Assembly: GCA_003971905.1 (NCBI GenBank)
Contig: RSEE01000047.1
Location: 372,001 to 436,000 of the forward strand
Reading direction: 5' to 3'
Length of the DNA stretch: 64,000 nucleotides
Origin: Moniliella sp. 'wahieum'
Lineage: Eukaryota
Positions 10,325 to 56,160 of this stretch are shown piece after piece; position 1 is the stretch's first letter, and each line of letters opens with the position of its first letter. The notes beneath the pieces are model-generated. The model did no database searches. It worked only from the letters and a program-made list of their open reading frames with translations, and was not told the origin of the DNA. Made by a program: the position numbers and the translations under genes.

Positions 10325-11375
10325 TCAACCGCGCCCGACGTAGCTAGGCATGTTGGTAGCCATGATGGTCACCTCCTGAATGTTGACCGACAAGGGTAGG
10401 TTGGCAATGTGGACGATTTCCTTTGCGACAAATTCACGGTCAACACAGGTTCGGTCTTGACCGTCACTCCATCCGCTTGGAGCACCCCCGTGCCCGACAT
10501 GCGCTTCGTCATGGACGAACTGGCATTGCCAATGTCGATTTGGGACACGGCAATATCTGCTGCACAGTAGGTTAGCCATCGATCTCACCTCATTCCCATA
10601 GCAACGGAGGAGAGACCCACTGTACTTGCGCCCGTCCAACGCAAGGGATTTGGTCAGGCCCGTGATGGCATGCTTGGTGGCAGTGTCTGGTGGGGCGAGG
10701 GTTAGTAGTTATGAAGTGCTATGAGGAGGCGAAAGATGCGGAGCGGGGAAAACAGACAGGCAGAAGAGTGGGGACGTGGGACCTTGGAGCTGATCGAACC
10801 GTTGAGGATGATGCATCCACCCTTGGTACCCTTGGAACCGTCCATGTAGCGGAACGCCTCCCGGCTGCAGAGAAAGGCTATTCGGAGTGAGCTGTCTGCA
10901 CCCAGTAAAACAAACACGGAGGAGCAGACGCAGCACCGCACCACACACACAACACCACACCACACATACCTCCATTCAGGTTGACATGAACCACATTCGT
11001 CCACTGCTCCAAGCTCAACTCTTGGATCGGCACCGCCGGAGCCCCAATCCCCGCATTGATAAAGATGAGATCAACATGCCCAAACAGCTCCTCCGCCCGC
11101 GCAAACATATTCGTCACTGCCCCTTCCTCCCCCATGTCGCCCATGTACAGTCTTACCTGCCCCCCCGCCTCGGGCGCCTCCTGCCGCACACGCGCAGTAA
11201 TGCTCTTCACCACCGACTCGAGCGCTTCCAACCGCCGGCCCGAAATGAGCACGTTCCATCCATCCAACGCCAGTGCCTCGGCAGTGGAGCGACCAATGCC
11301 CTGCGACCCTCCGGTGACGATGGCGCTGCGCGTGCCGCGGGGGGGCGGGAAGGTGCGGACGGCAGGATCGGCCAT
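10325..11375 (-). CDS. Short-chain dehydrogenase/reductase
   Basis: IVTGGSQGIG (TGxxxGIG), INAGI, IILNGSISS...PRPHS, TATKHAITGLTKSLALDGR, QIDIGNA; several introns; ends MATNMPSYVGRG. Confidence 0.9.
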
Positions 11376-11789
11376 GACGGTTGGGACGGGGTGCAAGTTG
11401 CGGGGGCTGCGTAGCGCCGAGTCGGGCTGGTGGATGGGACGACGGGATTGATGGTCGCTGATCAGTAATCGATGACTGGGGGGGCGCTTGTCTGGCAGCT
11501 GTGATGTGCATGTGATGTTTACTTGAACGTTGAAACATCGGCATGAGTGTGTTCGTATATCTTACGTCAGATCCAGCCAGGCCAAACGGGTCAGATGGCC
11601 TGTGAGGCTGAGGCCCCTGAGGGAGAGATGACGATTGGTGGAGGAGAGGGTGGTGCCGAGGCGTCGTCAACGCAAATAACGCCCGCGCGACGCGGAAACG
11701 GAATAGGACAGCCACTTGGTCTCCGCCTCCTTCAACACCACCACGCCTACGCCGTTCCTTGCGCTTGATACCACCCCCCCTTGCCCACC

Positions 11790-12970: not shown

Positions 12971-13536
12971 CTAAGCAAAGGACTGAGCTGCGGCCGAGCA
13001 CGCCTTGAGTTGTTCCAAGTAGTACGCACAGGCGTTCGTGTCGTTGTTGGTCGCCTCAAAGCAGCGCAGCAGATCTAACCGGGCAGACAGTTAGCCATTG
13101 TTATTCGCACGGGCCAATCCACTCCAAATCCAAAGCAATCAGGGGAGCACGTACCTTTGGACTGCGCTTCGCATGCAGCGCCCTTGGTGGCGTCTTGGGC
13201 ATTGTAGCCCTGGGCCCAAGCGGCGGGCTGTTGCTCCTGCTGGGGGGCAGGCGCCGGCTCCGAAGAAGAGGAGCCGCCAAAGAGCATGTTGCTCAGCCCG
13301 TGGCCAACCGTAGACCCGACCGCGACACCGGCGGCGGTGGAGGCCATGTTGGCAAACAGACCGCCGCCGCCCATGCTGGGCTGGGCCATGGGAGGTGGCG
13401 CAGCTGGTGCGGGGCGGGGGGCGGGGCATGGTGCTGCGGGGGCGGGTGGTAGGCCTGGGTAGAGGCGCTGCGGGAGCCCGAGGGCATGCGCGAAGAGGGC
13501 GAGGGGCGAGAGCTGGAGCGGCCGCGCGCGGGGCAT
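12971..13536 (-). CDS. MIX17: Mitochondrial IMS twin-CX9C protein Mix17 (CHCHD2/10 family)
   Basis: GGGLFANMASTAAGVAVGSTVGHG; CEAQSK|DLLRC...NACAYYLEQLKAC; intron ~13076-13153. Confidence 0.92.
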
Positions 13537-13961
13537 GGTGAGTAAGTTGGAGAGTGGAAGGTGGAGAGAGGCGGTGGCGGGGCGGGGCGGGGCGGGGGGG
13601 GTTATATAGGCCAGCGGGGCCACGGACCCTTCTGCTCTCTTTCCGCGCCGGGCTTCTTCCAGCACCTTCGGGCGCTTCGCCTGCCTCATTAACCGCTGCT
13701 GCTCCGGCCGACGTCCACTCGCCGCTGCCTAGTCCCGCCGGCCTGCGCATTACTAATTCCGCTTGCTCCCCCCCGAGCCCCGTGCCCAAGGGGGGTCACG
13801 TGCCCTAGCTGAGGTCAGCACTGTCAGCTCCATTTTTTTCGAGCCATGCTCCGCTCCGGCAGAGGCTATGTTGACATGCTAGCTAGTCGATAGCTAGCCA
13901 GCCACACCGATTGGCTCCCGTGCCGTCCTCACCCTCGCCTGGTTGATCCTCACACCCCACC

Positions 13962-14332
13962 ATGCCCAAAGCTGGCAAGCCACCGTACGTCCCTCCTCCC
14001 GCCCCGCCTGGTTCGGCCTAACCGTCTATTGCCTCTCTTCCTCTCTCTCTCAGGCGCGGAGCGCAAGCAACCTGCGCCCCACCCGATCATCGAGGGCCGA
14101 CGCTGCCCAGGCCGAGGCCCAGCCCAAGCCCAAGCCCACGTCTTCCGAAGCATGGACGAGCAGTGTGCAGCAGGCCAAGAAGAAAGGGGCCAATCGGAAA
14201 CGCGGCTCGCTGTCCTCGGTCGCGGCGCGCGCCAAGCGCGAAAAGGCTCTCGAGCGCCAAGATCGGCTGAACGCCAAGAAGAACAGGAAAGAAACTCGGC
14301 TAGCACGCAACCAGGCGGGACGCGGGGAATGA
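13962..14332 (+). CDS. Small basic protein, possibly Alb1-like ribosome biogenesis factor
   Basis: ATG 13962 (MPKAGKP), intron 13985-14053 with CTAAC branch; Lys/Arg-rich helix AKREKALERQDRLNAKKNRK. 3' end uncertain (GTAAG right after). Confidence 0.55.
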
Positions 14333-14869
14333 ACGGTAAGATCTAAGATCGGACAGCTTAGGTTGGAAGGGCATGGTAGGGTATGGCATGGAATGGCGGT
14401 GGTTGATGGGGACAAATTGGTGCATGTGGGGAAGAGAGGGGCGGGACGTGGGGTACGGTTTACCACGCCAGCAGCGGGGCAACAACGAACGTCAGCAGAA
14501 ACAACAGGTCGTCCAGATCGTCCCAGGAGAAGGGCAGAGAAGTGGAACCGAGGCAGGACACAGGGACCGGCGTTGGAGGCGGTGACAACGGGAGACCGTC
14601 TAGCGCAGGCGGTCGAGTCGGCCTGGGTCTCCCGGGCTCCGGTTGATCTCCCCCCGAGGCGGGCGTGATGCATGATGCATGATGGGAGGTAGGCCCAACT
14701 GCTGCAACGCGCGATCGGACCAGGACCAGGAAACCCACCCGGCTGGCACACGCCCTGACCAGGTCGGGTACGAGTACAGCTGCGCGACGGCCTGGTGCGG
14801 TGTAAAAAACAGAGGTTGCGCGGTGCATCGTCCGCCTGTACCGCCTCCGACGGGCGGAGATGGACAAGG

Positions 14870-15940
14870 CGGATTTGCAGAGGACAATGTGCATGCTGCC
14901 AGGAGAAAAGGCTGTTGCGAACTAACCACCGACCATTCCCCAATCGTTTTCCTTGGCTTCCATACACGCCCAGCGTCGGGCCAGAAACGTACGCCACAAA
15001 GCCGGCTTGGCCAGTGTTGCGGAAGAAGGAAGGATAGTTTTTGAACAACACGGTGGTGTTGCCGTTACCAAAACTGATTACTAGCGCTTGGCTGGGCGGG
15101 TCGAGCGAGACAATGTCACATAGTGTACGAGGACTCTGAGGAAACCACAATGTTAATCATCATCCTGGAAGCAACAGGAGACAACGTACCTTGTCTATCG
15201 TGGCTACTCGTTCAACCAAAGCGACAGGATCCTTCGCTTGGAAAGTAAATTCAATCTGTTGCGTCAATGGCTTTTGCCCCCGAGGACGGCGGTCAGGGTG
15301 CACCATGCCATGCTCTAAACTCCAGATGGGCGCACCTGTGACAAAGTCGTCTGGACCTGCTCGCCAGTTTCGACATTATAGATGCGGACTTCTTTCACGG
15401 TCCATCTAGTCCAGCGGTTCAGTGGCTGCAATCCAGCAGGCATAGAAGGGGGGAGGGGTGGCAACGCACCTTGCCAAGAGGGCGGGGCAAACGTATGCCT
15501 CCCCACAGCAAATGGGAACGTGGCGAGTTTGACAAACTGGCCGGGGCGAGGGGAGCGGCCGAACCAGTGTGGTGGGGCAGGTAGGTTTCCAAGCGGTAAA
15601 AGATAGTGCTGGGCCGCGCGTGCCGGGTGCGAGGCGCGAACGCAATGTACCCTTTCGGGTGGGAGAGCTGGAGAGCACGGCTGTGTCCCGCCTGCTTGGG
15701 AGATGGGCGAGGAGGTGTGCACGGGGCCTTAGGCCTTACGACCACCCGTCTTCGATTCATCTACAATCCCGTCGCCGAACAATGCCAGCTGATTGAGTTG
15801 ATCGGACCATCGCCCACGTCCAGGACCGCAGTCATCGATGGCAAAAGGGAACCAAGTATGGATTGGACAAGTAGGCAGCCAGTACAGACGCACTTTTTAC
15901 CAACCGACAACCACGGGCTTTTCGGGCCTAGTACATAGAT
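14870..15940 (-). pseudogene. Degraded beta-propeller-like gene fragment, resembling the C-terminal part of the F-box gene at 52.8 kb
   Basis: Intron 15136-15189 (GTACGT...TTAAC...CTCAG) joins VERVATIDK to SPRTLCDIVSLDPPSQALVISFGNGNTTVLFKNY; VRIYNVET resembles VVVYNVDT of the F-box gene; no clear start or F-box. Ends approximate. Confidence 0.45.
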
Positions 15941-17990
15941 GAAGCAGCTGCAAGCAGTACCGGCGCGCCGCAACGACGCCACGGTGACGCGTTGCGCGAT
16001 ACGACGCGTCACGCGCTCACGCGTCACGCGGCATGCGGCAAGCTTCAAGCACATGCATCATGATGCATGATGCATCATAGCACGTGACGCGTGGCGTGGG
16101 CGTGCAAGATTTCGCCACTTGGAGTACCCGCTGTAACAGTGTTACACTAAATCCAACAAGTGGGGGGAGAGGGGGTTCTCGAAGCAAGCGCACCCCGACT
16201 TGTCGCTGAGACTCAGCAGCCATGCATCGTGCATCATGCATCGTGCATCATGCATCATGGCCGCCCCTCTGAAAAACGAGTGAAGGAGGGTGCCTCGGGA
16301 CGCTCGCTCGCTCGCCCACCCGAAAAAGTTTGTGCGAGAAAAGGGGGGGCTGGGCATGCCAAGGGTACATTTCAAAGGTTGGTAAGGGAATCGAGATCGT
16401 CGATCATCGATCATTAATCAAGCTTCCAGCTTCCAGCTCACCAAGCGGCACGTCCAGGCGAGGGCAGCTCGGGTGTGTGACATGTGACCGGTGAATATGA
16501 ATACGAATGAGGCGCTCGAGGAGGTGGATGAAGTCATCGACCATCCATCTCATCAGCGCCATCAGCGCATCAGCCCTTGCAGGCCCCCTCGCCGTGGCCT
16601 CCTCTCTCCTCCCTCTCTCCTCTGCCCGACTCCCCCGATGTCAAGCACCGATCGCAGCCCTGTTCTCCACTGTTTCTCAGGGGAGGGGCAGAGCCTGCTT
16701 GGTGCATCGCGCCGCCCAAGTTCGACTCGTCAGTCGCTAGTTACCTAGTTACTAGTTAGTAGCACTCTCCGAACGGCCTGGCCCAGCCTAGCCCCCCGGC
16801 CTGGGTGCCTGGCCTGGGGTGCGGCAGGGGCGGCCTTTCCATATCAGCTGAGGCTCAGGCGCTCAGCCTGGTTGAGGCGCTGGCTGCTAAAAAGCTAAGT
16901 AAGCGCTAAGGCTAAGCGCCCACTCTCGGCAACCAAGCTAAGCCATGCTGAGTGCTGTGCTGTGCTGAACTGGGGCTGGATGTGCGTGACGCGTGACGCG
17001 TGACGATGCAGAGTGACTCGGTGACTCGGTGCCGGTGACCGGTGACTAGTGACTAGTGACATTGCCATGCAGGACACCATCCCGTTCGAGGCTGCGCGGT
17101 TCGCATCCGCGTCCAGCCACTTAGCAACTCGTTTTAGTAGCCCGTCGCCGCTCTCGCGCGTCCGCCGCATACAAGTCCCCCGAGCGCCCAGCGCTCTCAA
17201 TGGGAACGTTGCCCATCCGTACAGCGTGCCCATAGCGCTCCTTGCGGGTGGCTGGGCAGCTGCTCTCTAGGCGCTTCCAGTTGCTAGTTACATGTTACAG
17301 GAGCAGCTGGGACCTACCATATATCAAGCTTCTCGCGATTCGACCCCTTGGGCTAGGAAAGCAGGCCAATCTACCAGTAGAGGTTACCACGCACAGACCA
17401 ACCCCCCAGCCAAGGTCCAGAGAAAAGATGGTACGGTACATTCAAACAAACAAATAAGAACCGTCTGAGCGCCAGCGCTCCAGACCAGCAACGAGAGGTA
17501 TATGCTGAGAAAATACGGGGGGACGAGCGGAGAGGAGGGCAGGGCGAGGTACGGCGAGCCAGGCATCCACAAGCTCCACGGGAGCCAGCGAGCGGTCCAA
17601 CGCCCGCCTGGTGAACCGCACCGAGGAAACGGGACGAGTGACGGGTGCCAGGACGGGTGCGAGGGGGCCAGCTCAGGTCAAGGTCATCATGGGCGCATGC
17701 TTGAGACTTGAGAGCCGAGGCACAGCGCCGAGACAGGGCGATCCAATCCAGCGGGGGGGGGGAGACAAAGGACAAAGCGAGGAGTGCGGGAAACGATGGG
17801 AGGAGGGGGGGGGGGATGCGAGACGTATGAAGCAGAGACATGGGGATGCGAGAAAAATGCAGACCGGGGTGAAGGGCGTGCGTGCAGAGGCACGCAGTGA
17901 CCCATGGCGGTCATGGATAAAAACAAGTGGGAGAGCGAGGAACCGAGGCTCAGGGACAGAGCGCAGCGCAACAAGTGACGAGACGAGGCG

Positions 17991-18217
17991 CTAGCTCCGC
18001 ATCGTCCTGCACCGTGCATCGGCCGGATCGCACACGGGCCCCGTGTGCCTCGTCGTTGCGCTGGGGTGCTGGTGCAGGTCGTGCACAGTTTGTTTCGGCA
18101 GCGCAGGCGCGCGGCTAACCGGACGCGCATTGACCAGATCCGCGTCGCAGAAGACACAGATTCCTGTCCGGTGCGCGTCACGTGTCCGCACTCGGCGCAG
18201 ACAGCGTACGTCGTCAT
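17991..18217 (-). CDS. Zinc-finger microprotein A (~75 aa; CX2CX10CX2C after one +1 correction)
   Basis: TATA at 18521-18527, pyrimidine-rich leader, 5'-UTR intron 18224-18317 (GTAAGT...GCTAAC...CCCCAG), ACAACC-ATG. Restoring one G at 18163-18164 gives MTTYAVCAECGHVTRTGQGICVFCDADLVNARP...RCRTMRS*. Confidence 0.7.
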
Positions 18218-18520
18218 GGTTGTCTGGGGCGGAGCAAGGGCAGAGGAGGGTTAGCTGAGCGTGGGGGGAGGAGGCAGACGCGGCCAGAGAGGGCGCGTGC
18301 GGCAAACACCAACTTACGGAGAGGAGGCGGCGGCGGCGGAAAGTGGAACGAGGTGGGCGGGAGAGGGAGAATAGCGCGGTGGGCAAGAGCAAGACGTGCT
18401 GTAGAGGAAGCAGCAGCGTTCAAGGAGCAAGCGGGGGGTGGGCGTAGGAGCGAGCAGGCGCAGAAGCGGTGGGTGGGGGGTGGGGGGGTAGCACAGGCGG
18501 GGGGGCGGGGTGGGGGTGGC

Positions 18521-18527
18521 TATTATA
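18521..18527 (-). promoter_or_regulatory. TATA box of microgene A
   Basis: TATAATA on the minus strand, in a GC-rich context, followed by a C/T-rich leader. Confidence 0.65.
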
Positions 18528-21500
18528 TCCCCGGGCGGGCGTTGAACGTTGAACGTTGAGTCGTTGAACGTTGAACGTAACGGTGACCGGGGCAGGCGCA
18601 GGGCCCCGATTCGGCGCGGTGGCAGCAGCGGGCGATTGGGGCGATGCTGGCCGCTGGCAGCCAAGACTGCCGGCCCAGGCACGCAGGCAGCTCGCCAGTG
18701 CCCACGGCCGGCCACGTTGCCGGCGCGGACACTGCCCCCCTGCCGCGCATTCCGGCCCCCCATTATGCATTAGAGCGAGGCGCCGCCAGCGGGGGGCACC
18801 GCAGCGGGCACCGCAGCCCAGGCGCCGCTGCAGCAGCGCCTGCGCAGGCGCATCGGATGGGTGATCTTAGCATGCCGCGGAGCGCAGTGGCAGTGCGCAG
18901 CGGAACTTGCTCAGGCTCACGCGTCACGCGTCATGCGTTGCCTGGGGGGTGCGCTGGGGAGGTCACCCGTCTGACATGGCAGCGCATGCTGGGGCGGCGT
19001 GGGGCGGGTGGTGCGGCGTGGTGCGGCGTGGTGCAGCGGTGGGGGCGATGCATGGGGCCATAGGGCGCCGCCCGGCAGGACCCCCATGCCAAGAAGCGTC
19101 ATCGATCAGCCATTACTACTTAGTACTTAGTGCCGTACTCGGGGGTGCGTGCATCGCAGTCGTCAGTAACTCAGTACTCAGTTACTCAGTCTGCTGAGCG
19201 TCACAGCCGCTCTCGCACCCTCGCAGCTCGGCCGTCCACGGGCAACCCCCTGAGCTGGGCCTGCGTCATCGACATCGATCATCCGAGTGAGCCACCCATC
19301 GAGTCGTAGCCATCGCAGCCATCGGTGAACCAGCGACATCCATCGCCAGCGCCATGTACCATGGACCAGCCCGCCCCCACTAGGCCAAGCAGGCAAGCAG
19401 GCGCTGCGCAGGGCGTGAGTGCATCAGCGCGCTTGCCTACTCATCATCGCATGCATCTCCATCCATTCCTCCGATCGATGACTGAGCACGGCGCAGTGAA
19501 CATTGCACATTGCACCAACAAACACAACCTGGGCCGGAATGCCAAGGCAAGCCGCTTGCGTGTGCGCAGGCTTAGGGCCGCGGGCACAGCGCCAGTCAAC
19601 CTGGTCAACGGCCATTCGCTCGGCGCGAGCGGTGGGGCGGAGCCTCAGCACGCAGCGCTGCGCGCGCAGCTTCAAGCTTCTAGTGACTACTCGAGTGACC
19701 ACAGTGACTACGACCTACTCCACCTCCTCCTACCTGCCCCGATGAGGATGCGCTCTCGTTTGCCACAGTAGCCGCCCCAGCATGGCGCCGCACACGACAA
19801 CCCCACTCCACATCAAAAAGTGGGGAACGCAAAAGCCGAGAGACGAGAGCAGTCGACCTGCGAGGGGGCCCTCCCCCCGCCCGCGACAGAAGCAATGAAG
19901 CACAGAGAGCGAGAATCAGGGGCTCCTGCCCAAGTCGTATGCTCCGAATGTGGTGCTCACCACCATGACCGAAGTGGAGTAAGGATTGCACACATGGTGG
20001 GGATGTGGCCCTGCTCGTTTCCCCAGCTCAGCACTCACATAACTCACAACTCGCATGTCTTCACAGAGCTGTCCAAACGTGAGCCCCTCCTCTCTGTCGG
20101 GGCTCCGCGCGCATCCACATCCCGCATCACGTCACCGGCGTCACGGCTATCCTATCGTGCTCGTCATGGCGCTGTCCCTTGCGAGGGGTGGAGCAGGACG
20201 TATATAATAGCTCAAGTATATACCCCGGCCCCGCTGCAATGCTCCACCGGCCGCCACATGTCTGTCGTATTCTATGTACGTGCCCCCGCAATGAGAGGAC
20301 CTAGATTTTAACGCGGTACCCCGTGGTCGGATGGCCATGCCCCGATCCACACTAACAAGTTGGCTCAAGTGTGGAGCCTAGATAGACACTGAGATCGGAG
20401 AAGCGAAGCCTGGGAAACTCCTACAGGTGTTGTAAGGAAGAAAAGCAAAACGACGTCGTCTCGCCATGGTATTAGAGCCCCGGGCAACAACATTCAATCC
20501 ACTACGCCACGGAGTGGGGCTGTTGGAGCACACATGCGCATGGACGCACATATGCTGCGGGGTGCGGGAGGTGGGGGAGAGTGGAGACACACAAAGGAAC
20601 GTCTCCTCTCTCCGCATTGGCTCCCAGATCTCACTACCTGCGCGCCGTAGCACTTTTGGGATCGATGACTAGTGACTAGTGACTGCGGTGCGTGCGCCTC
20701 AGCCTCTCAGGAGAAGCGTTCAAGTTGGAACGTTGAGGCGTTGGGCCAGCAGAGGGCGGTAAAGATCCCCTTTGCCCCACCTAGTCAGTAAGGTAGTTTG
20801 GGCTTTGGATTGACTTCGCTGGGAGACTACCAACGGAGGAGCGGCGACTGCTCCACAACTATAATAAAAAGCTTCTTACGCGCGTCGCGTTAATTTTGAG
20901 TCAGTACCGGCGCCGGCCGACGGGCTCCGAAAAATTGCCACTTTTCCCCCCCCGCTCCGCCGACACCCGGCGTAGACAGCAACTCCGAGAGCAAGTTATC
21001 GAGGCATGCCGACAGCCGGCCGTGAGATCTGAGACGCGTGAGAGTCTGTGAGAGCTTAAGGAAGCGAGTCATTAATAGAAGGCTCTCGCATAGTGCTCTT
21101 CCTCATAGCACCGCCATTCTTCCACAGGTCTTCTTCGTTTTGGGACGTATAGCGCCGTAGCGTGCATCCATCACTAGCTTCACTACAGAACAACAGTCCA
21201 ACGGATCTCAACACCACTGGCTCGGACATCTGTGCTGGAAGGCACATGCCCGCGTTGTGGTACCCGTGATACGTGTTCAAACCTCGAGTTATAACGCAGT
21301 GTGGGGATATGCAGGACACCCCACGTGGCACCAAGTGGAACCCCGTTGTTTCGGAGGGAGACTTGGTCGTGTTTAGTACGGACTAGAAGTGACTATAGTG
21401 ACAATGTTGACGATATAGTGACTATATAGGAACTGCGGCCGACGAAGGAAAGCGGTGCGCCGCGGAGCGGGACCGGCAAGCTGTGCTCTCTCGCCAGCTG

Positions 21501-22573
21501 CGTCGTTCTCCTGCCCCACACACGCTCCAACTAGGCGCTCGCAGGTTCCACACTCTGTCTTGTTGATTATAAAAAATTTACCGTGCAGAAGACTGTGCGT
21601 GTTTAACGTGCCCGTGTGCGCTCTTCCCTCAGGCCTCAGGCCTCATTCAAGAGGTCCCAGACCGGCATCAGACCTCAGCCTCAGACCTCAGCCTCAGACC
21701 TCAGTACTCAGTCCTCACCAGGCTGAGGGCTTCGGTCTCATTTACCCGTCCCATATGGTCTTTTGCTGTCTCTGCGTAAAGATCGAACGAGGCCGCACAC
21801 TGGCTCGGGAAGGATCTGCCGGCTGAATTTCTTCGCTCCGGACGAGGTTCCACGTCCATGATGCATGCGTTGCATCTGCTCATCTTCGTACTCCTTTAGC
21901 CCAGCCCTTTTCTCATCAAAGAGATCCGTTCATCTTCTCCGGCCTCAGGCGGGCGTCCTGCTTTCTTTCCCGTTAAAAACCAGTCCGCCCTCCTTTTGTG
22001 GCATGTGAGGTACCTCTGACCTTCAGTTGTTGGGACAGGACTTCAGAAGAAATTATATGCACATCCTATACTCATTGATTGGCTTTGAACCGTCCTTCTC
22101 CTCAGACCACAGCCGTCCTGCAGCCACGTTCACCTCTGCCCCGCATTTGTTCTCTAGAAACGGAACCGAGTCAAGGATCGCGTCTCAGCTCTTCCTATAG
22201 TGTGAGCGCTGGACTAACGCTCGTTCTTCATCTTTTCGAGTGAACGTCCAGTATGCGGTGGGTGTTACTAATACCCCCCCCGCGCGCGCGTTGTCCGTCC
22301 TCCCAGTGCCTTCTTTTCTTTCCCAGGTTATGCACCATGTCGCGTCGCGGCCCTGCCGGTAGTGCGTTCTCACTTATAGTGAAGACGGTGATATATGCTA
22401 TTAGATAATGCTTTTTTGGGGGGTGCAGGAAGGATATAACCAAACACCGTTTTTGCTGCCTAGTAACGATTCACGAAATGCGTCCCCTGTAAGTAATGTT
22501 TAGAGAGGTGAGGAACCAGGGCGTGCGTACAAGGCAGAGAGGATGAGTAGGGCAGAAAGGCAAACTCTTTGAA

Positions 22574-22807
22574 TCAGCTCATCCCTACTGCTTCCCTCCT
22601 CACTTCTCCATACAACAAAGCTCTCTGTGAGTGGGGCGAGGCAAAAGAGGGGGCGTATAGCACGTGGTCTCCTGTATAACCAGGGGGAGCTCCAAATAAG
22701 CACTGGGAACTACACGACAGGGGGGCAGGGTATTCTGAACGGCTTGATGAGGGGACAGGGGCAGCGAGACTCAACAGAGAAAAAGGGAGAAAGAAAGAGA
22801 AATGCAT
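22574..22807 (-). CDS. Candidate small secreted peptide (77 aa)
   Basis: MHFSFFLPFSLLSLA|APVP signal-like N-terminus; no recognised homology; could be a chance translation of a pyrimidine tract. Confidence 0.3.
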   Translation of the reverse strand: MHFSFFLPFSLLSLAAPVPSSSRSEYPAPLSCSSQCLFGAPPGYTGDHVLYAPSFASPHSQRALLYGEVRREAVGMS

Positions 22808-25800
22808 GCCGAACGAACTGCACAGGTTAATACACAACTCTTCAGGCACACAGCCCCCCAGATGTACAATCTGCCCTTGTTACTTCCTTGGGCATGGTAG
22901 CGAGGAATTGGACCGTGTGCCAAGTCGAGATGGCGTTGTGAGGCAAATAAATGTACACAAAAAACGGCTACGTACAACCCATCCAGGTCGCCTCCAGGAG
23001 GTTCTGCTTCCCATCCGAGAAAGGAGCAAAACCGTGTTCATCGAATGCGCTGCATGGCCGACGACCAATATACCAAAAACATCCGGCCGCGCCCGCGATC
23101 GTGAGATGGAGACGGTACCGATCGAGGACAATCCAGGATCTAGAACCCCCGCCACCAACGTTGGTGGGTGGGCTCTCAGAACTCAGAACCCACTCATGCT
23201 CAGAAACCCCGAAGAGTGGGGACAGGCGGGATGGCCTGTGCCATCGCCAGCGGGGATCCCCAGGATGGACAATATACCCGTCGGATAATAAGCTACCCAC
23301 AATAATAAGATTCACGGCGTGTGGGGTATAGGAAGCTATGAAGCTTATTGAAGAAAACAACCTGTTTCACTATGGCATCTCTCTTGTTTGCAGACGAGAC
23401 AAGAGCCCAGCGCGGGCAAGACACGGGCGCATTGGTGCACGCACCCTATGTAGTTCCTGCCCTGCGATCGCGCATGGCGGGGCGGATTGTTTGCTTTTAC
23501 AAGGTACACCCGCGGCTGGCTGTGGCGTGGCTCCTATTTTTTCCAGGGTACGTATACACACATCGCGCACCGAATCCATGCCGAGATCATGCGATCATGC
23601 TATGCCAGCTATTATATGCCCCTGTGTGTGTGTGCTGTACTAAATTACCCCCACCGTCATCGACGGGGCTGCTGCCGCGACCATCAAATGCATCCTACTC
23701 GTTGCACGCCGCGAGACCCCCCTATCCTGGTATCTCGATACCTTCGCCATACAGACGGTAGCCTTCGTATTTGATCCGCGATCAGAAAAATTGTCCTCGT
23801 AAATTAAGGAGCCATGACCCACGGCTTTTTCATTTACTCTCCCTAAGAGCATCACAGTGGGACCACGTGCCTACCAAGTGGAGCGCAGCTGTGGTTTTAT
23901 GATTCGATCTCTCGTCTATACACTACGGTCGATGCCCTTTCCCCTGGCCTAGGCCGGATCGGCGCTTGGGCAAGGTGAGATCTGTCCTCTGCTCTATGGG
24001 CTGCCTGAAACCTGCTGAGGGCCCGAGGGCTTGCCATGCATTGCATCATGTGGTGCCCGGGAGCAAGCCAGTCTCACCGACAGACAAACAAATGGCAGTG
24101 AATCGGAATCGGAATCGGAGCGTTCGAGACAACGGAAGAGGCATGTGTGGGGTAATTGAACTGTTGGGAGCATGCGTTACGCATTACAGAGCCAGCCTTC
24201 AGTTCTCCAACTATATATACGTTCACGTCTATGATGAAGCATGAAGAATTAATGAAGCTTGAAGATAGAACACGATGAGGCGGGTCGGCACAATCGGACT
24301 TTTCCACGGGGTCTCTTGAACGTTGCGCCTGGCCACGAGTTCCGTGGGAGAGTGTCTCCATGAGATGACCTCTGCAATGGACGCTTGGGGGAACATAAAC
24401 ACTGGATAGTGCTTTGCTGTAGTCGTCGGGCAGAGCCAGGCAGCGTCCCAGAAGGAAGGGAGGTTTTTCACACACACACGTTATTCATATGGGCCCGTGC
24501 GCCGGACCATCATGAAAGTGGGGAGCGCCGATGATCGAGGAAGGGAGAGCGAACTGTTGATTGAAAAGGTGGTTCTTATAGAGTGGAGTGTCTCAAAGAA
24601 GGGGAAAGAGGGGAAAGAAATGCTGGCCAGCTTATTGGCCATCACCATTTGGGATGTATAAGAACAGAGGCAGGTTCTATTCATGAGGAGAGAAGATGAA
24701 AGACCAACAGGTTTACAGTGTAAAGTGGAAAGGAGTCGGAGGGACGAAGTGAGGACCAAGGACGAAAGGCACACGAGGCGAGACGAGGCGAGGGTCAAGG
24801 ACATGAATCATCTCTCACGAAAGTATACACAGGCTCTCAGATATGAAAAAAGAGACCAATACAACCCTTTTAGTGTGCAACAGCTAATGTGCACCACAAT
24901 ATTGGCTGAGGTATATGTTTGCATCACTCGTAGTGCGCGCCCCTCCCCTTCCTAACATCAAAAGAATGTTTTACGGGCTGGGACTATAGACGTCAATCAT
25001 GGCTGTTGCGCTCATATGAACGCTATGAACATCCATGGCTGCATTACTTCTTTTCGCGTCTAAATCCACTGAACATGTACGCTTGGACCTGTGGGACGTG
25101 GGCCAAGAGTCTATCAGGTACGGCCGAGGGTGCTGTCACTGGTGTGCGTTTCCTTTTTGTTCACATCTCTTTTCTCATATCCTGCTTCGAATGAATTCTA
25201 CAGGAAAATGCGCGCACGGAGAATATAGTACAACGATTGTGTGAATTACGAGTTTCTTGATCTGTGTGCGTCCTGTCCTCTGGTGGTCGCTGGGTGAGGC
25301 TCTTCCCTCGGCCTGCCCTTTTATTGTTTGTGCCTTTTCGCTATCATTTTCCCCATCTCCATCTCTTGTTAATCTGTACCTTCTGCATCTTCATCATTAT
25401 GCATACACAAAGGATCACGATAACAAACTGCTTTCTCTCTCCGCCATACAACTCACGTCTGCTCTGAGGCCAAAATGAAGCATAGTGACGATAGCCTCAT
25501 GACGCCCTGAAGAGGCCTTGGATAGTAGTAGTAGTAGTGATGGTGGTGGTCTAAAGGCGAACCAACGAGAGACACCTAATACAAACAGCAACAAGCGATT
25601 TCCAGCACGATGGATACGGAACAACAAGAGGAAAAACAACAGAAGAGCGGAGGGAAAACATATACTTCCATCAAGCTGCATCATGCATGCTGATGTACAT
25701 AATGTACACCGAAGGCGGAAGAGACCATGTGCTGGGGGCACAAGAGACTAGTATAAGAGAGACTAATATCAACTTTTTTCTTCAAAAGAGCTGAGGGAGA

Positions 25801-26423
25801 ATAACCTGTAGTTCATCTTGGCAGTTGGGCCATACGTAGACTAGGTGGGGCTAGGCCCGAGCCTACTAGGGCCATAGCTTAGCGCTAAGGTTTAGCCCTG
25901 TTCACATGATCATACTTAGAGCGTATAGCCTGCCTCGTGCCACTTGTCGTCCGTCACGTTTTCCAAAGATGGGCCAATACCCGCATCAATACCCTTTTCT
26001 GCGTGCTTTGGGCTGAAGCCCCCTAAAATATAGAAGCCCGCCATCCGCGCGTGCACCACGCGCCGAGAAGTGTGTATACTAACAGCGCAGTTCTCCCACA
26101 CAGGCTATATACCACGGTAGGAACTTGCAGGAACTTGCACTTTTGAATGGGAACACTGAAGGAAACTGAAAGTAAGCACACCGTACACCCCCCCCTGGTG
26201 GGAGAGAGAGGATGCTATGCAAATGACACCACCGGACCTCTCCCCAGCCCTCGGGGAGCCTCGGAGCCTCCGCTTCAAATCTGGTAATAAGGACTGGATC
26301 ATGCATATGTCATGCCATCTCTCAATCTTGCACACCGGTTGTGAGTTTGTGCCAGACTTTTTGCTAGGCGGTGTGTCAGGCAGTGAAGAGCTTGGGGAAA
26401 TTGGGGTGTTCCAGTGGTGTCCC

Positions 26424-27600
26424 TTCAAGCTTCAAAAGCTTCAGTGCAAGTGTGAAATAATACCCCCTGCGTGCTCGCGCGCGCTCGCGGCGTTTTCTGC
26501 ATGACGTGTGTGCTAGATGGCGCAAACGTCGCGTGTGTTGAACTTGAAGCTTGAAGCTTGAAGCTTGAAGCTGTGAGAAGTTTCATCGCGTCTCTCGATG
26601 GATGTCCGATGGGCCCGGCGAGGAATGGAGATGGGCATGGGCAAAAGAAAATGTGCAGTGCAGCTTCTTTTGAAGCCGCAGTTCGCAGCAGCGCCGGCTC
26701 GCAGTTGCGTACCATCAGCTCGAGAGTGAGTGACACAAGTGACTAGTGAAGCTAGTGACTAGTGACAGGTCCGCTATTATTAGGCTCTTGGAGGACCATG
26801 TTCCAGTTGTTTAGCTCCCGAGACTGCTGCGTAGTCCGAGGGTCTACTATAGGCGCTATTACCACGATGCCAACTCACCGGTACTTACCCCTCCCCTCCC
26901 CTCCTCCACACTCGCGTCCCTGCCATCCAACGCTATCGCGGCGTTGGATGTTGCAACGGTTCACCGTTCCGCCTCAGCGTCCCCAACGTCTCATCTCCAC
27001 CGCCTCATCTCCACCGTCTTTTGGCCCTTGTTTTCCGCAGCCGCAGCCGCAGACAAGCACAATTGACGATGGAGGCCGATGCACGATGCTTCTCGGGGCG
27101 GCAGCGACGTGGTGACGGATGATCGATGATTAATGATTCACCCCCGTCACCTGGAAGCTTTTTGAAGGTACCAAGGTACTAAGGCTTGAAGCTTGAACAG
27201 CTTTGGACGCGGAGCTGGCGAACGATGGGCGAAGCAGCACAATGGCATGGTGGGCGCTCATCTCGTCTTGGGCAACAATTATGAATCAACGTTCAACGCT
27301 CAACCGTGGGATTAGGAGCTGCGGCGCGACGGGGCGGGGCAGGGAGGCGGTGTGGGGTATGGCACCTTCCCAATCGCACAGCACCCCTTCTCTCGTGGGA
27401 TTGCCACGTACCCTCTGCTACTAGTACAATCCACGCCGTGTAGATTTGTGGTGCCGAAAACGAAAACGGAACCGGCGCGAGCTGCCGTACGGCCGCAGCC
27501 CTGCCTGCCCCCCCTTTCCGTTTGGCAACCCCCGCACTCCACAGCGCCACACCCCCACAGCCGAGAGCTGCGTTGAGCAGCTGCGCGCTGAGCCTGCGCC
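26424..27600. repeat. Right field of period-7 (TGA/TCA + 4-nt palindrome) arrays
   Basis: TGA-AGCT x4 (~26545-26572), TGA-CTAG-TGA (26740, 26756), TGA-TCGA-TGA-TTAA-TGA (27120), TCA-ACGT-TCA (27286). Confidence 0.9.
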
Positions 27601-27826
27601 CTGGGGTAGTCATAGTCATACTCGACGGTTCTTGGCGCCAATACGCAGTGTCCAACGCGTTGTGCCGCGGAGGGCGCTTTGTGCCGCGGAGGGCGCTGGG
27701 TGCTGAGCGCTCGCTGAGGCAGTAGCGCCGACAGCTCAGCCTGGCGCCATCGCAGCACAGCGTCAGTGTCAGGCGCAGTGCTGTGCACCGTCCCCCCTCC
27801 CTCCCCCGGACTTGGCCCCGCGAGTG

Positions 27827-27832
27827 TATAAA
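27827..27832 (+). promoter_or_regulatory. TATA box of microgene B
   Basis: TATAAA followed by a C/T-rich leader. Confidence 0.7.
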
Positions 27833-28041
27833 GGCGCTCCTAGCGCCCCCTCCTTCTCCATTCTCTTTGTCTGTCCCTGGCACGATCCGCCTCTCCTTTG
27901 TTGAGTGCTTTCCCACCGCCGTCCACCCCTGGCTGTCTCCTTCGCTCCCCACTTCGACACACGCGTGCCCTCTGCGCCCCACCCACTCAACCCACATCCC
28001 ATCCCATCCCCCCGAGAACCAGCCCCTCCTGCAGCTCAACC

Positions 28042-28230
28042 ATGTCTGGCGGCGTTCAGCTCCGGTGCCCAAACTGCAACTACAATGTGAGTTACTACTG
28101 GGAGCGGTGCAAGAACTGCGGCTTTTTCCTCGCTTGCCGCCCCGGTGCTCCCGATAACGGTCCCCTTTGGCCCCATCGCCATCTGGATGACCTCTCCTCG
28201 GCCTTGTCACGCGAGACGAAGCATTGCTGA
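28042..28230 (+). CDS. Zinc-finger microprotein B (62 aa; CX2CX10CX2C)
   Basis: Intact ORF MSGGVQLRCPNCNYNVSYYWERCKNCGFFLACRPG...RETKHC*; TATAAA upstream; TCCTGCAG acceptor followed by CTCAACC-ATG. Confidence 0.8.
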   Translation: MSGGVQLRCPNCNYNVSYYWERCKNCGFFLACRPGAPDNGPLWPHRHLDDLSSALSRETKHC

Positions 28231-28833
28231 ACAAGCCCCCTCGCACGCCCCCCCCTTCCGCCCTCGATCCACATCCTCTCAACTTCCTGCATTCACCCAA
28301 GGCTGGACCTTGAATCAAGACATTAGGATGGCTTGCTATCCAACCTTGTTCCTCCTGATCGATGATCCCTCTCCAGGCAACCCTTCCATCCGCACTCGCC
28401 ACGCTGCCCCACCGCGTGCGCTTACGCATTCGCCCCTCGGGGCACCAGTCTTCCCGCCATTTTCTTCCCACTCTCTCCCCTTTCCCAGCTCCTCTTTTTC
28501 TATATCCCTGTGTGCACCACAGGGTCATACCATATTGGCATTGGCGTTAGTGCTGTTCCTCAGGCGTGGCCTTCTCCCTCCCCTCCTCCTGATCGTTGTT
28601 CCGTCTTCCCTCGCATCTGCATTGGTGTCTGCACACCCCACTGTACCTATGTATCACCATGGCACCTTGCCTCTGCAGCAGGCTTCATCTGGAGCTCCCG
28701 CAGAAATGATTGTATTCGTGCCGGTCATGCGTGCCATCAAAACAAACCTTCCTTCTGCTCTGCAGGGGGAGGGGAAGGGCGTAGAAGGATAATACAGTAG
28801 CAAGATGAGGAATATGGATGCGAACGGTGCGGA

Positions 28834-29859
28834 TCACAGTGCTGTGCCGTCCGGTTGGGAGGCCGGGGTGAAGGCAGAGATGGGGTAGGTATCTCCTTGC
28901 CAATGCAGATGGGCTGCGACAGCAGATGGACCGTCTTCTGGTTCTTCTACCAACTCCAACCGGTCTGCTAGGTGGCGCAGGACGAGCGAGTCGGACAAGG
29001 CGCAGACAGGCATGCCGGCGCGCAAGAGCGGCCGTGGGGACGGGTGGTAGATCCGTCCGGTTTCAGGATGGAGGGTCAAACGCGCCGGCTCAAACGGCTC
29101 CAATCGTCGGCCCCCAAAAGCGACAAGTCACTGGGCGTTTTCGGGCAGGGAACCAGGTCGCGGTACACGACCGCCGTCCCGTCCGGCTCAGTGGGACGGA
29201 CAAAGTTCAGCTCGCCCATGCAGGGGCTCAGGTACCTGTACCCGGCACGCTGGGCTATCTGCGCCGCACGTTGTTCCACCTCGGCCTTGGTCGCACTAGG
29301 CGAGCTGTGCGATAGCAGCTGCTCGGGCCAGTCGTGTCGGTCCCATGCCGGGACGCCATCCTGGCCCAGTTCCTCGTCCGCACAACCCAGCGTTTCGACC
29401 AGTTCCGACAGAGGTGCCGCCCGGTACGGGTTGGGCCTGATGCGGACAAGAAAAAATCAAGAAAGGCTAGGTCCTTGTAGCACGTCTGCCAACAGGGGCT
29501 ACGTCAGCGAGAAGTAACAGCAAAGGGGCTGTGCCCAGGCAAGAACACATAGCAAGCGGGGTGAAGACGAAGCGCGAGCTGGTTACCTTACCGCCATGTT
29601 CTTGACCGGCGTGTCGTGCAGAAAAAGTTGGCCGTGCGCATCGACGGCATAGCGATAGATGCGCACTGGCTCTCCTTGCCGCCCGGCGCCCGAAAGGGGC
29701 ACGGCCGCGGCGGGGTACGGGGGGAGAGGCCGAGGCGGACGCGGTGGAGGACACCATGCGCCCCGCACACGTGGCGAGGCGAGACCAGGAACGGGCGGCG
29801 CAGAGAGGTGGCCGTGCACCGCCAGCAGCGTGCCCACCGCAGAGCGCAGCCCAGCCCAT
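28834..29859 (-). CDS. UPF0598/C8orf82-like (DUF4505) protein
   Basis: [70 protein letters not shown]; intron(s) ~29480-29590; start approximate. Confidence 0.85.
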
Positions 29860-30109
29860 CGTCGCCACTGGCGGTGGTGTGTGCGGCGGCCAACGCAGGC
29901 CGCGACGCAGACGGCCGCCGAGCACGAGAAGCGGCGCCGCATCACGTGATGCCCCATTGGCGGCGGTGAGTCATGCATCCTGGAAGCCACCGACTGCTCG
30001 GCGACGTCGAGGGCGGAAGAATTTTGCTGGCCACCACCACCTCCACCACCTCCACCACCTCCACCACCGCCTCTCCTCCTCTCCGTCGACGCGGCTGCTG
30101 CGTCGGTTG

Positions 30110-41716: not shown

Positions 41717-42116
41717 CCTGCTCGTTGTCCTGTTGTGCTGATGATGAGATGGTTCTGCTAGGATGCGTGTGTGGAGGATGTGGTGGTGTGTAGTGTGCAG
41801 TTGCTCTTATTACCTGGGCTGGAAGATGTGGCGCTGCTCGCCAGGCGGACTACTGACGGCTTCGAGAGGGTACTAAGTACTAAATGCGGCTGGCCGATGG
41901 GAAAAAAGTTTGACAGAGAATGTGGGACCAAGACTGGCGCTGCGCTGCGCTTCGACCGCACTTTCTTCCCGCTAGCATTCGCATTCCGCGCGCGCCCTCC
42001 CGCGAGGCCCGCCGAGCGTGGGACGCGTTGTCTTCTTTTGGTGCGCCACCCCTCCCTCGCCGCTTCCTGCCCTAGCTCTTGCTCCTCTCCCTTGTCGCTG
42101 GAAGCACCCGTTCAAG

Positions 42117-45589: not shown

Positions 45590-46295
45590 TATCGTGTCGT
45601 ACTGCGTGCTCCCTATCCGCCCTTGGCATCCTGTCCTTTTTTGCAGTGCTGTTCCGTTCTTGTGTGCTTGCTCTGGCCTGTGAGCCTGTGACCCATGCGA
45701 CCCAACCACGGCGCGTTTGTTCTTGTACCCTCTCTCTGCCCGCCACGCCCGCCCGGCGCTTGCTCGCCCCTTGCGTTTCCCACGCAACCCATCGGGGCGT
45801 GCTGGATGAACAACCGATCCAATTTCCATGTCCAGCAACCAAGCCAGCGGTGGCAATAGGCCGTGCTCCCCCCAACAGAAGGTGGTAGTCGTCCGATAGG
45901 TTGTTATGGGATGCGTGTCAGACAGAGAGAACCGCAGGGCGGCGGGTGAGGCAGCGCGCTAGTCAGTAGGACCGGTCGACGGTAGGATTATCTGCCAACC
46001 AAAACGTAACACATCTCGTTCCCCATAGATCAAGGCACCGGAGGGATGGTCTGGGATGGAGCACTTAGGACAGAGTGGCTTCATATCCATAGCAGCACAT
46101 AGTAAGCGTCACGTGCATCCTATGGAGTCGGTGCAACGAGCCAACGCGCTCAGTGGGTATTCCCGCTCTCGCAGCTCCCCACATGCTCTCCCTCCAGCAG
46201 CAACACTCCAAAACCCGCCGGGTCTGCTCCACCACCACCACCACCACCTCCTCCTCCTCCTCCTCCTGACCGCGCAAGCGGGCGCCAGGGCAGAC

Positions 46296-54989: not shown

Positions 54990-56160
54990 GGCCCCACCTG
55001 TTCAGCCTCTCAGTTCACCCTGTTCTGTACGTTTCTCTTTTTTTCTTCCCTCCCGACCGGGTAGGGCGGTGCATATGTGTACTTTATCTTTCCCCTCCTC
55101 TAGCTTCTGTCCCTAAAAAACGAACCGTTGAGACTACATCGCGGCCTGGTAAATGTGCCTGGTGACCCGGTGACGCTGCAGCTTATTGAAGCTCCGCATG
55201 ATGCCGATGATGGAAAAATGCGTGCCTGAAAGTGTGTGCCTGATGATGGAGGCATATGTCCGTCCATTTGGGGGGTGTGGCGCATGGTGTGCCTGAGGGT
55301 GTGCCTGAGGCCTGAGGCCTGATGGTATATACTTTGAATCGGCAGTAGGGTGTGCGCCGAGCCCTTCTACTGTTTCTCTTTCCCTCTCCCTCTTTATACC
55401 CCCTTTCTGGCGGAGGTTTGTGACCACGATGCTCACGATCGATCACGAACGCTCTTACAAAACCCAACTCCCATTTTCCTGCTCTCGTCCCCTTCGATAC
55501 TTTTCTCCTCTGTGCCATCGAGCCCATCGAACGATGCCATTGACTACTATCTCTCCGAGTTTTCCTGGCGCGCTTGCGTCGCTCTCGAGTCTCCTCATTT
55601 ACTCCCTACACAGCCATTTGTTTGTGTGAAAAAGAAATGGAACGGATCACGCTTTCCTCTGAGGTGACTCGGTGCCTAGACAGAGGTGTGGTGCCTAGTG
55701 CCTCTCCCCCTTGTGTTACCTCGGTGGGGATTAGATCTCAGATAGAAAGGTACAGCGCACGGTGCCGATGCCAACGAAAACGAGTGCGTTAGCCCGACCG
55801 CCACAGCGGATTTGGTCGCCTGGACAGGGTGCTGGTCTGTGCTCGCTGGAATGCAACGAGGATGTGCGTGCCGCCGAACGGTACTATGGGTCGCGTCTTG
55901 CATTCATGCCCTTGATTGTGGTGGGATTTCTCTTCCACTGAGGCTAAGTGAACTTTCGCCAAAAAGTATTTTGGTCCAGACTCGCGGGGCATTTGTCCCG
56001 TCCATTACACCCTTAGTTTGTTTATTGGAGAAAGCACGCAGTGCGCGTCATCGGTTCCGTCGGTTTCGATGACGCGCGATACTAAAGGGTGGTTTGGCGG
56101 GACGATGGCATGCACGAGAGGGCAAATGACTGTGGAACCAGGACACCAAACAGCAAAAAT

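Follow-up and report, generated by a model that had tools for sequence, protein, structure and literature searches.

How can a tandem repeat keep its symmetry constant while its sequence is left free? The question is raised by 64 kb of DNA from Moniliella sp. 'wahieum' (contig RSEE01000047.1, positions 372,001 to 436,000; hereafter the window, with coordinates counted from its first nucleotide), in which many short arrays repeat a T-N-A triplet every 7 bp and separate the triplets by 4-nt palindromes that differ from one array to the next. Fixed symmetry with free sequence is a mark of nucleic-acid pairing, familiar in RNA stems but unexpected in DNA arranged in tandem. Should the arrays be mutational scars, a duplication process that is site-specific and so far undescribed has left its record in them. 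If they are selected, they would constitute an unusual example of a chromosomal element, possibly a centromere, that is set by a structural grammar, and the idea of non-B DNA at centromeres would become testable in a small, tractable yeast-like genome. Our literature search, which included exact array strings and left subscription journals mostly outside its coverage, retrieved no published description of a TNA-palindrome grammar with period 7. Being so simple, the rule lends itself to counting in any assembly.

A symmetry rule with free sequence and fixed period

The arrays are tandem runs of low copy number (2 to ~5) of a 7-bp interrupted palindrome, y'x'-T-N-A-x-y, which can equally be viewed as 6-bp palindromes A-xyy'x'-T spaced by a single base. 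The two outer pairs of the unit are complementary but free in identity, the inner pair is invariably T/A, and the period does not deviate from 7. The central N is free, with G or C in about three quarters of the cases. An earlier note on this DNA had listed 12 of the 16 possible 4-nt palindromes. This number holds for spacers with TGA or TCA on both sides, each of which was found where the note had placed it (TGCA at 14666, TCGA at 16404, TTAA at 16411, CATG at 16478, CCGG at 16485, CGCG at 16987, CTAG at 17043, ACGT at 18543, GTAC at 19171, GATC at 21023, GGCC at 21629, and AGCT at 26545). As a total it is too low: with TAA/TTA and mixed flanks, which add GCGC and ATAT, 14 palindromes are used, fairly evenly, and AATT and TATA are missing. 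In-phase mixed chains of the kind described in the note, TGA-CATG-TGA-CCGG-TGA (16478-16494) and TCA-TCGA-TCA-TTAA-TCA (16404-16420), are present as well, as are variants with TAA or TTA (e.g., at 14337, 15729, 16749, 16900, 17288, 18763, and 19120). Its 6-nt-spacer variant, TGA-CTATAG-TGA at 21390, is real but a single case. The window contains 46 TNA-(palindrome-TNA)k chains in total, 33 with k = 1, 11 with k = 2, and 2 with k = 3. The chain at 16404-16420 and that at 27120-27136 carry the hexamers ATCGAT and ATTAAT in the same order, with C and G as the respective linker base; a simple inverted copy would reverse the order.

Occurrences of TNA-N4-TNA in the window were compared with simulated sequences of Markov order 1, 3, and 5 (200 per order). 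Pairs of triplets with the same N and a palindromic spacer were observed 55 times versus simulated means of 1.9, 1.3, and 2.6 (maximum 8); the corresponding pairs with a non-palindromic spacer were observed 32 times versus 18-30 in the simulations. An internal control gave the same picture, as palindromic spacers made up 101 of 1693 (6.0%; random value 1/16) for the 60 non-TNA flank triplets versus 55 of 87 for the four TNA triplets. Within the window, palindromic spacers are in more than 20-fold excess, limited to TNA flanks, which bears out the view of the earlier note that slippage of a single unit is insufficient for a symmetry rule with variable sequence. It also leaves chance, or an assembly or sequencing artefact, as an almost negligible explanation: no simulation on any of the three backgrounds reached the observed count, the 60 other triplets sit exactly at 6%, and the arrays are short, diverse in sequence, and located in unique DNA, unlike collapse or stutter artefacts.

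The repetition is direct. The spacer was palindromic in 31 of 40 cases of TGA-N4-TGA and in 15 of 33 cases of TCA-N4-TCA, and 55 palindromic-spacer pairs of TNA triplets share N, versus 6 that differ in N. Inverted flanks were not enriched for palindromic spacers in the window (TGA..TCA, 1 of 6; TCA..TGA, 2 of 8). The earlier note had offered a choice between a fold-back or template-switching process and selected sites or structures. A simple fold-back or template switch, which predicts TGA-palindrome-TCA, is weakened by these counts. Among spacer lengths of 1-10 nt, only length 4, i.e., period 7, was enriched (55 of 87 palindromic versus 5.4 expected). Lengths 2, 3, 5, and 6 were at expectation, with palindromes in 3 of 27 5-nt and 1 of 52 6-nt spacers, and lengths 7-10 gave no palindromic spacer at all.

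The same restriction emerged when exact period-7 duplications of at least 14 nt were collected. An interrupted-palindrome unit was found in 25 of 43, versus 11.3% expected for random units; all 25 have a T-N-A centre, and A-N-T, C-N-G, and G-N-C centres occur in none. Exact period-7 arrays containing TNA were palindromic in 25 cases and non-palindromic in 4, where free flanks would give a ratio of 1:15. Between 14000 and 27700, T-N-A-centred heptamer palindromes numbered 103 versus 37.5 ± 6.7 expected, and the other three centres (ANT, GNC, and CNG) were at expectation (37 versus 35, 59 versus 65, and 64 versus 69). Hexamer palindromes of the type A....T were likewise in excess in this region (102 versus 40.7), whereas other outer pairs, and all hexamer palindromes outside the region, were at expectation.

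The prokaryotic heptamer repeats that were sampled do not follow this rule. Among the matches listed, 129 bacterial and archaeal loci had at least five TGA triplets at period 7; only 7 of their 783 spacers (0.9%) were palindromic, and none of 132 arrays had a palindromic main spacer, so that the share lies below the random value of 6%. We conclude that the palindromic rule is not a general property of heptamer repeats. Many of the prokaryotic loci listed were from cyanobacteria, Bacteroidota, and Acidobacteriota. Within the window, the strongest 1/7 periodicity belongs to purine-rich arrays outside the TNA-palindrome rule (AAGGGAC x2.7 and GGGGAAG x5.1, 33609-33660), which lie within or beside an inositol-phosphatase-like gene. 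A near-miss to the grammar is found at 44680-44716, where GCGACGT/GCGACAT is repeated 5.3 times with a 14-nt super-period; its palindrome is ACGT, and its linker is GCG instead of TNA.

The arrays concentrate in a gene-free region

The window is eukaryotic and gene-dense, with ~60% G+C overall and a recognisable gene every ~3 kb outside a gene-free gap of ~14-15 kb (13800-29600), which extends from a short-chain dehydrogenase gene to a cysteinyl-tRNA synthetase gene. The non-coding, array-rich part of the gap (14100..27600, ~13.5 kb) is referred to below as the gene-free region. Of the 46 chains, 33 lie between 14.3 and 27.3 kb, and period-7 runs cover 969 of 13,701 nt (~7%) of the region. The chains are concentrated there but not confined to it, as others occur, e.g., at 41874 and 55306. 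Their orientation in the region is balanced and interleaved (17 TGA/TAA versus 16 TCA/TTA), without strand bias. The arrays and related features are compiled in Table 1.

Table 1. Positions of arrays that follow, or have diverged from, the TNA-palindrome grammar
Feature	Position	Strand	Remark
TAA-GATC x2	14337..14350	+	exact 14 nt
TGA-TGCA x2.7	14666..14684	+
GGCC-TTA x2	15725..15738	-
Composite quasi-palindromic block	15986..16098		~100 nt; TCA-CGCG units 16004-16030, TGA-TGCA units 16059-16077
TCA/TCG-TGCA x5.6	16221..16259	-	14-nt super-period CATGCATCGTGCAT x2.6
TCA-TCGA-TCA-TTAA-TCA	16395..16420	-	chain 16404-16420; adjacent units differ only at central dinucleotide
TGA-CATG-TGA-CCGG-TGA	16478..16494	+
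CTAG-TTA x3.6	16737..16762	-	imperfect
TAA-GCGC-TAA	16900..16909	+	in TAA-rich patch
GTGAC-rich cluster	16984..17060	+	TGA-CGCG x3, period-8 GTGACTCG run, TGA-CCGG-TGA-CTAG-TGA-CTAG-TGA
TTA-CATG-TTA	17288..17297	-
TGA-ACGT x5.4	18540..18578	+	interrupted by one 5-nt spacer
TTA-TGCA-TTA	18763..18772	-
TCA-CGCG-TCA-CGCG-TCA	18917..18933	-	perfect inverted copy of 16987-17003; TGCG flanks both
TCA-TCGA-TCA; TTA-GTAC x2; TCA with spacers GTAAC, GTAC, GTTAC	19099..19190	-
TGA-CTAG x2.7	20666..20684	+
TGA-GATC-TGA	21023..21032	+
AGTGACT units spaced by AT	21388..21429	+	includes TGA-CTATAG-TGA
TCA-GGCC x2.7, then degenerate TCA array	21627..21717	-	non-palindromic spacers GACC, GCC, GTAC, GTCC in the degenerate part
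Decayed array of TGAAG words	24235..24270	+	spacers AGCA, AGAATTAA, AGCT, AGAT
TTA-GCGC-TAA	25879..25888	.	mixed linker base
TCA-AGCT-TCA and partial unit	26424..26445	-
TGA-AGCT x5.1	26538..26572	+	longest array
TGA-CTAG-TGA-AGCTAG-TGA-CTAG-TGA	26738..26766	+
TGA-TCGA-TGA-TTAA-TGA	27118..27142	+
TGA-AGCT x2	27184..27197	+
TCA-ACGT-TCA-ACGC-TCA	27283..27304	-	decaying
GTAC-TAA x2	41870..41883	+	outside the gene-free region, ~235 nt upstream of the TCP-1 open reading frame
TGA-GGCC x2.9	55303..55322	+	outside the gene-free region, in another stretch without codon periodicity

A Pfam search (E<=0.01) with 130 stop-to-stop open reading frames (ORFs) of at least 60 amino acids that overlap 13.8-27.7 kb returned no match, and a separate scan of longer ORFs returned only two, both left of 13.8 kb. 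The 3-base periodicity that is strong in the flanking genes is absent across 14.1-27.6 kb. The two longest ORFs of the region translate into low-complexity strings rich in R, G, A, P, and S without a domain match. Neither Rfam families nor tRNAs were found in the region, and self-blastn detected no dispersed repeats there. Since 14.1-27.6 kb is devoid of coding signal, domains, and RNA families, we regard it as a neutral setting. The G+C content of the region spans 71% down to 47%, with the trough at 24.5-26 kb. The gap from 13800 to 29600 is a candidate for a regional centromere or another special chromosomal region. Long G-runs and GGGGCGG-type repeats, possible G-quadruplex formers, are located at its left edge (13400-13620), inside it (18460-18520), and at 41523-41553.

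Several identities of the region were discarded. A coding or peptide repeat is ruled out by the lack of a domain-bearing ORF and of 3-base periodicity, and RNA genes are absent. For a mating-type locus, we found no STE3 or homeodomain match, no convincing CAAX pheromone ORF, and a single word resembling a pheromone response element, far off at 34737. A decayed satellite or dispersed family is not indicated either, as self-blastn was blank in the region and shared flanks such as GGCGGGCGT are short.

The host is a smut-related basidiomycete, with no close relative among the named matches. The ORF for eIF2B-epsilon has its nearest named relatives in Ustilaginomycotina, with Tilletiaria anomala on top (44%) and Ustilago, Kalmanozyma, and Moesziomyces at ~40%; two further clusters match at 72% and 64%. 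The earlier note had mentioned heptamer-rich intergenic DNA in Ustilago maydis. The clade agrees, but we found no paper on such DNA in that group.

Growth, decay, and boundaries of the arrays

Scans with Tandem Repeats Finder and for exact runs showed head-to-tail copies of a short unit within the 1-10 bp range of slippage-type repeats. Like microsatellites, the arrays have low and variable copy numbers, super-periods, decay by point mutation, and a non-coding location. Ordinary tandem repeats, however, have no symmetry rule for the unit, which is expected to be unconstrained, whereas the excess observed here is limited to period 7 and to T-N-A-centred interrupted palindromes. Some arrays display a 14-nt super-period formed by two variant units (16221-16256), which indicates that whole units were added after mutation. 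Others form a graded series from perfect to barely recognisable (21668-21717, 24235-24270, 27283-27304, and 20716-20743). Length variants fall exactly at the centre of the palindrome, as in GTAAC and GTTAC, each with one base inserted, beside GTAC (19163-19190) and in CT-AT-AG (21390). The arrays do not end at random phases: their ends gather at the edge of the TNA and in the middle of the palindrome. These preferences do not reduce to one phase common to all arrays, which keeps the birth event from being deduced. In the composite block, a TCA-type and a TGA-type array join head-to-head in the perfect palindrome ATGCATCATGATGCAT (16053-16069), which lies within an 18-nt palindrome (16052-16069), with GTGACGCGTG on the far side.

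Two readings that touch on array phase and period were tried and dropped. A 5-bp duplication with two additional palindromic nucleotides fits the commonest end pattern, but the relatives with periods 5, 6, and 8 that it predicts are absent. A three-frame stop cassette, conceivable because every TNA reads as a stop codon on one of the strands and 7 equals 1 modulo 3, leaves the palindromes unexplained, and most arrays have fewer than three units. Repeats of two further kinds were compared with the arrays and set aside. In the accessible part of one source, Microstromatales telomere motifs measure 52-178 bp and are not heptamers (PMC13234504); according to the accessible part of another, the "palindromic microsatellites" of Fusarium mitochondria are (A)n(T)n arrangements and not comparable (PMC7218506).

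Predicted structure of the arrays

The arrays are self-complementary except at the N.N position. The fold predicted for single-stranded DNA consists of a 5-bp stem from two neighbouring units and a TNA triloop, with N.N mismatches further out. Ten segments were folded as single-stranded DNA, each in comparison with 200 shuffles. The longest array (26538..26572) reached -7.9 kcal/mol (z -4.4), the TGA-ACGT array (18540..18578; folded from 18536) -12.3 kcal/mol (z -3.1), and the composite block (15986..16098; folded from 16000) -31.1 kcal/mol (z -3.1). Only 0-1 of 200 shuffles folded as well as these three segments, versus 6-80 of 200 for the other seven. The best of eight short segments (27-29 nt) were 55300-55326, with a GGCC spacer (6 of 200 shuffles), and 21622-21650 (13 of 200); in the remaining six, 13 or more of 200 shuffles did as well. 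By this folding model, stable structure is thus plausible in only a minority of the arrays. For the mismatched hairpins envisaged in the earlier note, this means clear predicted stability in the longest arrays (z -3.1 to -4.4) and weakness in the usual ones with two or three copies. Outside the arrays, hairpins with a TNA loop and any stem were not enriched, and odd palindromes centred on TNA extended no further than those with other centres. Long perfect dyads with arms of at least 8 nt occurred at only four loci, without a general excess.

Origin of the arrays

Our tentative preference, held well short of conviction, is that the arrays represent a lineage-specific class of short tandem repeats, a mutational by-product of duplication and repair that needs two ingredients and accumulates in neutral DNA, rather than selected sites. 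An array would be born when a site with dyad symmetry about T-N-A gains a head-to-tail copy of exactly 7 bp, either through a two-fold-symmetric cut with a 7-nt stagger, fill-in, and rejoining, or through a nascent strand that re-primes one unit back. Growth would be due to ordinary slippage, altering the copy number in 7- or 14-nt steps, and decay to point mutations and short insertions, which often fall in the middle of the 4-nt palindrome. The arrays would accumulate where constraint is absent, i.e., in the 13.5-kb gene-free stretch. The first ingredient would be an enzyme-like specificity that keeps the T/A pair and the length of 7 bp constant. The second would be nucleic-acid pairing, which could enforce the complementarity of the other two pairs and leave their identity free; candidates are the two-unit hairpin with its 5-bp stem and TNA triloop, or the pairing of identical strands or ends. 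Complementarity without identity is unreadable by a protein and points to strands that pair, whether when an array is born, while it grows, or under selection. The constant T/A pair and the constant length of 7 bp, by contrast, suggest a specific enzymatic step, such as a symmetric cut of fixed stagger or a transposition-like duplication length. A staggered cut followed by fill-in explains the 7 bp, the dyad about the central base, and the joints at the palindrome centre. Plain or hairpin-assisted slippage accounts for growth and perhaps for the symmetry, but neither for T-N-A nor for the restriction to period 7, and the prokaryotic control speaks against a general bias.

A number of observations count against such a by-product. 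We know of no process that supplies all the constraints at once. If slippage were assisted by hairpins alone, periods of 5 and 9 and centres of the C-N-G or G-N-C type should be favoured too, yet none of them was observed. Furthermore, the arrays with two or three copies fold weakly (-1.6 to -4.9 kcal/mol, z -0.1 to -2.2), which makes thermodynamic help for slippage in typical arrays doubtful. A protein-directed staggered cut, in turn, leaves the covariation unexplained and should yield duplicated heptamers that are mostly not palindromic. Nor is the array density of the gene-free region expected from pure neutrality; by an eye count, it is ~6-fold above that of other stretches without codon periodicity (3 chains in ~8 kb in total, read by eye, versus 33 in 13.6 kb). 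Solitary TNA-centred heptamer palindromes are modestly enriched as well (48-52 versus 31-36), an excess that could reflect selection or the relics of old arrays. Finally, neighbouring units of different sequence differ symmetrically at the central dinucleotide in four of four cases (CATG/CCGG, TCGA/TTAA twice, and CCGG/CTAG), a hint that palindromy has been restored or selected. Quasi-palindrome correction and template-switch mutagenesis create or perfect inverted repeats and could mirror changes between the halves of a palindrome in exactly these pairs. They do not, however, make 7-bp direct repeats, and inverted flanks are unenriched here.

Were the symmetry itself selected, the dyad-symmetric arrays might be kept because they fold into non-B DNA, as slipped hairpins or small cruciforms, and thereby mark a chromosomal element, most plausibly a regional centromere in the gene-free region. 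We regard this as unlikely, yet as deserving serious consideration. The symmetric double changes between neighbouring units preserve palindromy, solitary units are enriched too, and the longest arrays fold significantly better than shuffles. Moreover, the arrays concentrate in a long region that is free of genes, domains, and codon periodicity (14.1-27.6 kb) and flanked by housekeeping genes in an otherwise gene-dense window, and G+C dips locally to 47% versus ~60% overall. The portion of Kasinathan and Henikoff (2018; PMC5889037) available to us describes short dyad symmetries (<10 bp) enriched at centromeres, together with non-B DNA. Short dyad symmetries concentrated in a gene-free chromosomal region are common to both cases; however, that portion contains no T-N-A or 7-bp rule, the structures predicted here are mostly weak, and the gap is only a candidate centromere. 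Selection for hairpins would leave unexplained why only T-N-A centres and only a 7-bp period are used. Longer dyads are barely enriched (the four loci with arms of at least 8 nt), TNA-loop hairpins show no excess beyond the arrays, hairpins of most arrays come out as unstable in the prediction, and arrays also occur outside the region (41870 and 55303). The nearest mapped centromeres, those of Malassezia in the same subphylum, look different from the gene-free region, as far as the accessible part of the source goes: they have a 12-bp AT-rich motif and a core of <1 kb with 78% AT (PMC7025860). That motif resembles the arrays in being short and enriched, not exclusive, in a gene-free G+C trough. 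It is, however, one AT-rich consensus in a small core, whereas the symmetry rule of the region analysed here is GC-neutral, leaves the sequence variable, and extends over 13 kb of 47-71% G+C. The dip of the region is mild by comparison. Retroelement domains were not found in the ORFs scanned across the gene-free region, nor were relics of the kind that the accessible part of the same source attributes to the large regional centromeres of Ustilago (PMC7025860).

The fixed length of the direct duplication (same N in 55 of 61 palindromic-spacer pairs, period exactly 7) also brings to mind the scars of cut-and-paste transposons or of a transposase-like nuclease, an origin that we hold to be rather improbable. 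The arrays could be excision footprints consisting of target-site duplication (TSD), two nucleotides, two nucleotides, and TSD, in which T-N-A is a 3-bp TSD and the palindrome derives from the terminal dinucleotides of inverted ends, or they could be empty 7-bp TSDs. TSDs of the form TNA are typical of PIF/Harbinger and IS5-type elements, and the canonical Tc1-type footprint places direct repeats around a palindrome (TA-xy-y'x'-TA), an architecture that the direct TNA repeats around a palindrome resemble. As in the arrays, the direct duplication of TSDs and excision footprints has a fixed length and dyad symmetry, the target contains a T..A pair, and the insert that separates the triplets is palindromic; the preference of array ends for the TNA edge and the palindrome centre fits too, and small insertions sit at that centre, as at a repair joint. 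Basidiomycota do possess DNA transposons with 7-bp TSDs, namely hAT7 in Pucciniales and Kyakuja in Agaricomycotina, according to the accessible part of PMC12730594. In addition, a 1,947-bp segment (16987-18933) is edged by perfect 17-nt inverted TGACGCG arrays (TGACGCGTGACGCGTGA and its reverse complement) with TGCG on both sides. This layout is like that of a foldback element but possibly due to chance, as a single TGCG-flanked pair is about what chance provides given several array pairs of the same type. What speaks against scars is that the flanks covary, which the target preference of a protein does not produce, and that excision footprints would need 14 different terminal dinucleotides in 13 kb, where few kinds of element ends are expected. 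Empty 7-bp duplications, for their part, predict mostly non-palindromic heptamers, contrary to the 25 palindromic versus 4 non-palindromic ones observed. Up to five identical units would require repeated visits to one spot. In the window, we found no element that combines terminal inverted repeats with a duplication of TNA or of 7 bp, and searches for duplications of 2-9 bp and for miniature inverted-repeat transposable elements gave only chance-level matches; the ORFs scanned across the window (12 + 22 + 130 + 99) yielded no transposase domain, and self-blastn revealed no dispersed repeats. Less probable still are protein-binding arrays in a large regulatory region, with direct TGA (TGAC-like) half-sites every 7 bp, as the earlier note had considered, or 6-bp palindromes bound by dimers. 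Some words recur, such as TGACTAG (17043, 20666, and 26740/26756), TGAAGCT (24253, 26425, 26545, and 27187), and TGACGCG (16017, 16987, and 18917), and some hexamers, e.g., ACGCGT, presumably resemble known fungal motifs. With 16 classes over 33 loci, however, such recurrence is expected. The loci have only T-N-A in common instead of the shared consensus of a transcription factor site cluster, and no single factor or plausible set of factors predicts complementarity without identity; half-sites thus fail to explain the 14 different palindromes on one scaffold. Moreover, 7 bp is not a helical repeat, and no regulatable gene was detected for 13 kb.

We give some weight, though not much, to the prospect that the arrays stem from an undescribed DNA transaction at T-N-A sites where both strands read alike, or that they are the signature of a new, symmetry-coded type of regional centromere. 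Such a transaction might be carried out by an activity that nicks or cleaves in a strand-specific manner and finds its target word through base pairing with a guide or a folded strand. At palindromic words only, it would break both strands at a distance of 7 nt, and filling in the ends would produce a duplication of 7 bp. The probability left over beyond the favoured duplication by-product and the four rivals (selected structural DNA, transposon scars, binding sites, and chance or artefact) is reserved for explanations not yet conceived.

Other features of the window

On the left side of the gene-free gap, the window carries genes for Pet127, V-ATPase subunit d, an aminotransferase, and the short-chain dehydrogenase (10881-11561, minus strand). 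The right side begins with the cysteinyl-tRNA synthetase gene (from ~29606, plus strand) and includes genes for an inositol-phosphatase-like protein, eIF2B-epsilon, Ccdc124, TCP-1, a member of the bicarbonate-transporter family, and threonyl-tRNA synthetase, an F-box gene, and a gene for a sulfate permease. Two Rfam tRNA genes of 95-100 nt (51437-51531 and 60602-60701) probably contain introns. Neither was called by ARAGORN, which reported an unusual tRNA with an anticodon of four bases at 56161-56252 instead. CCA/CCT trinucleotide arrays at 30031-30068 and 46229-46267 are alike and constitute the sole self-blastn match in the whole window.

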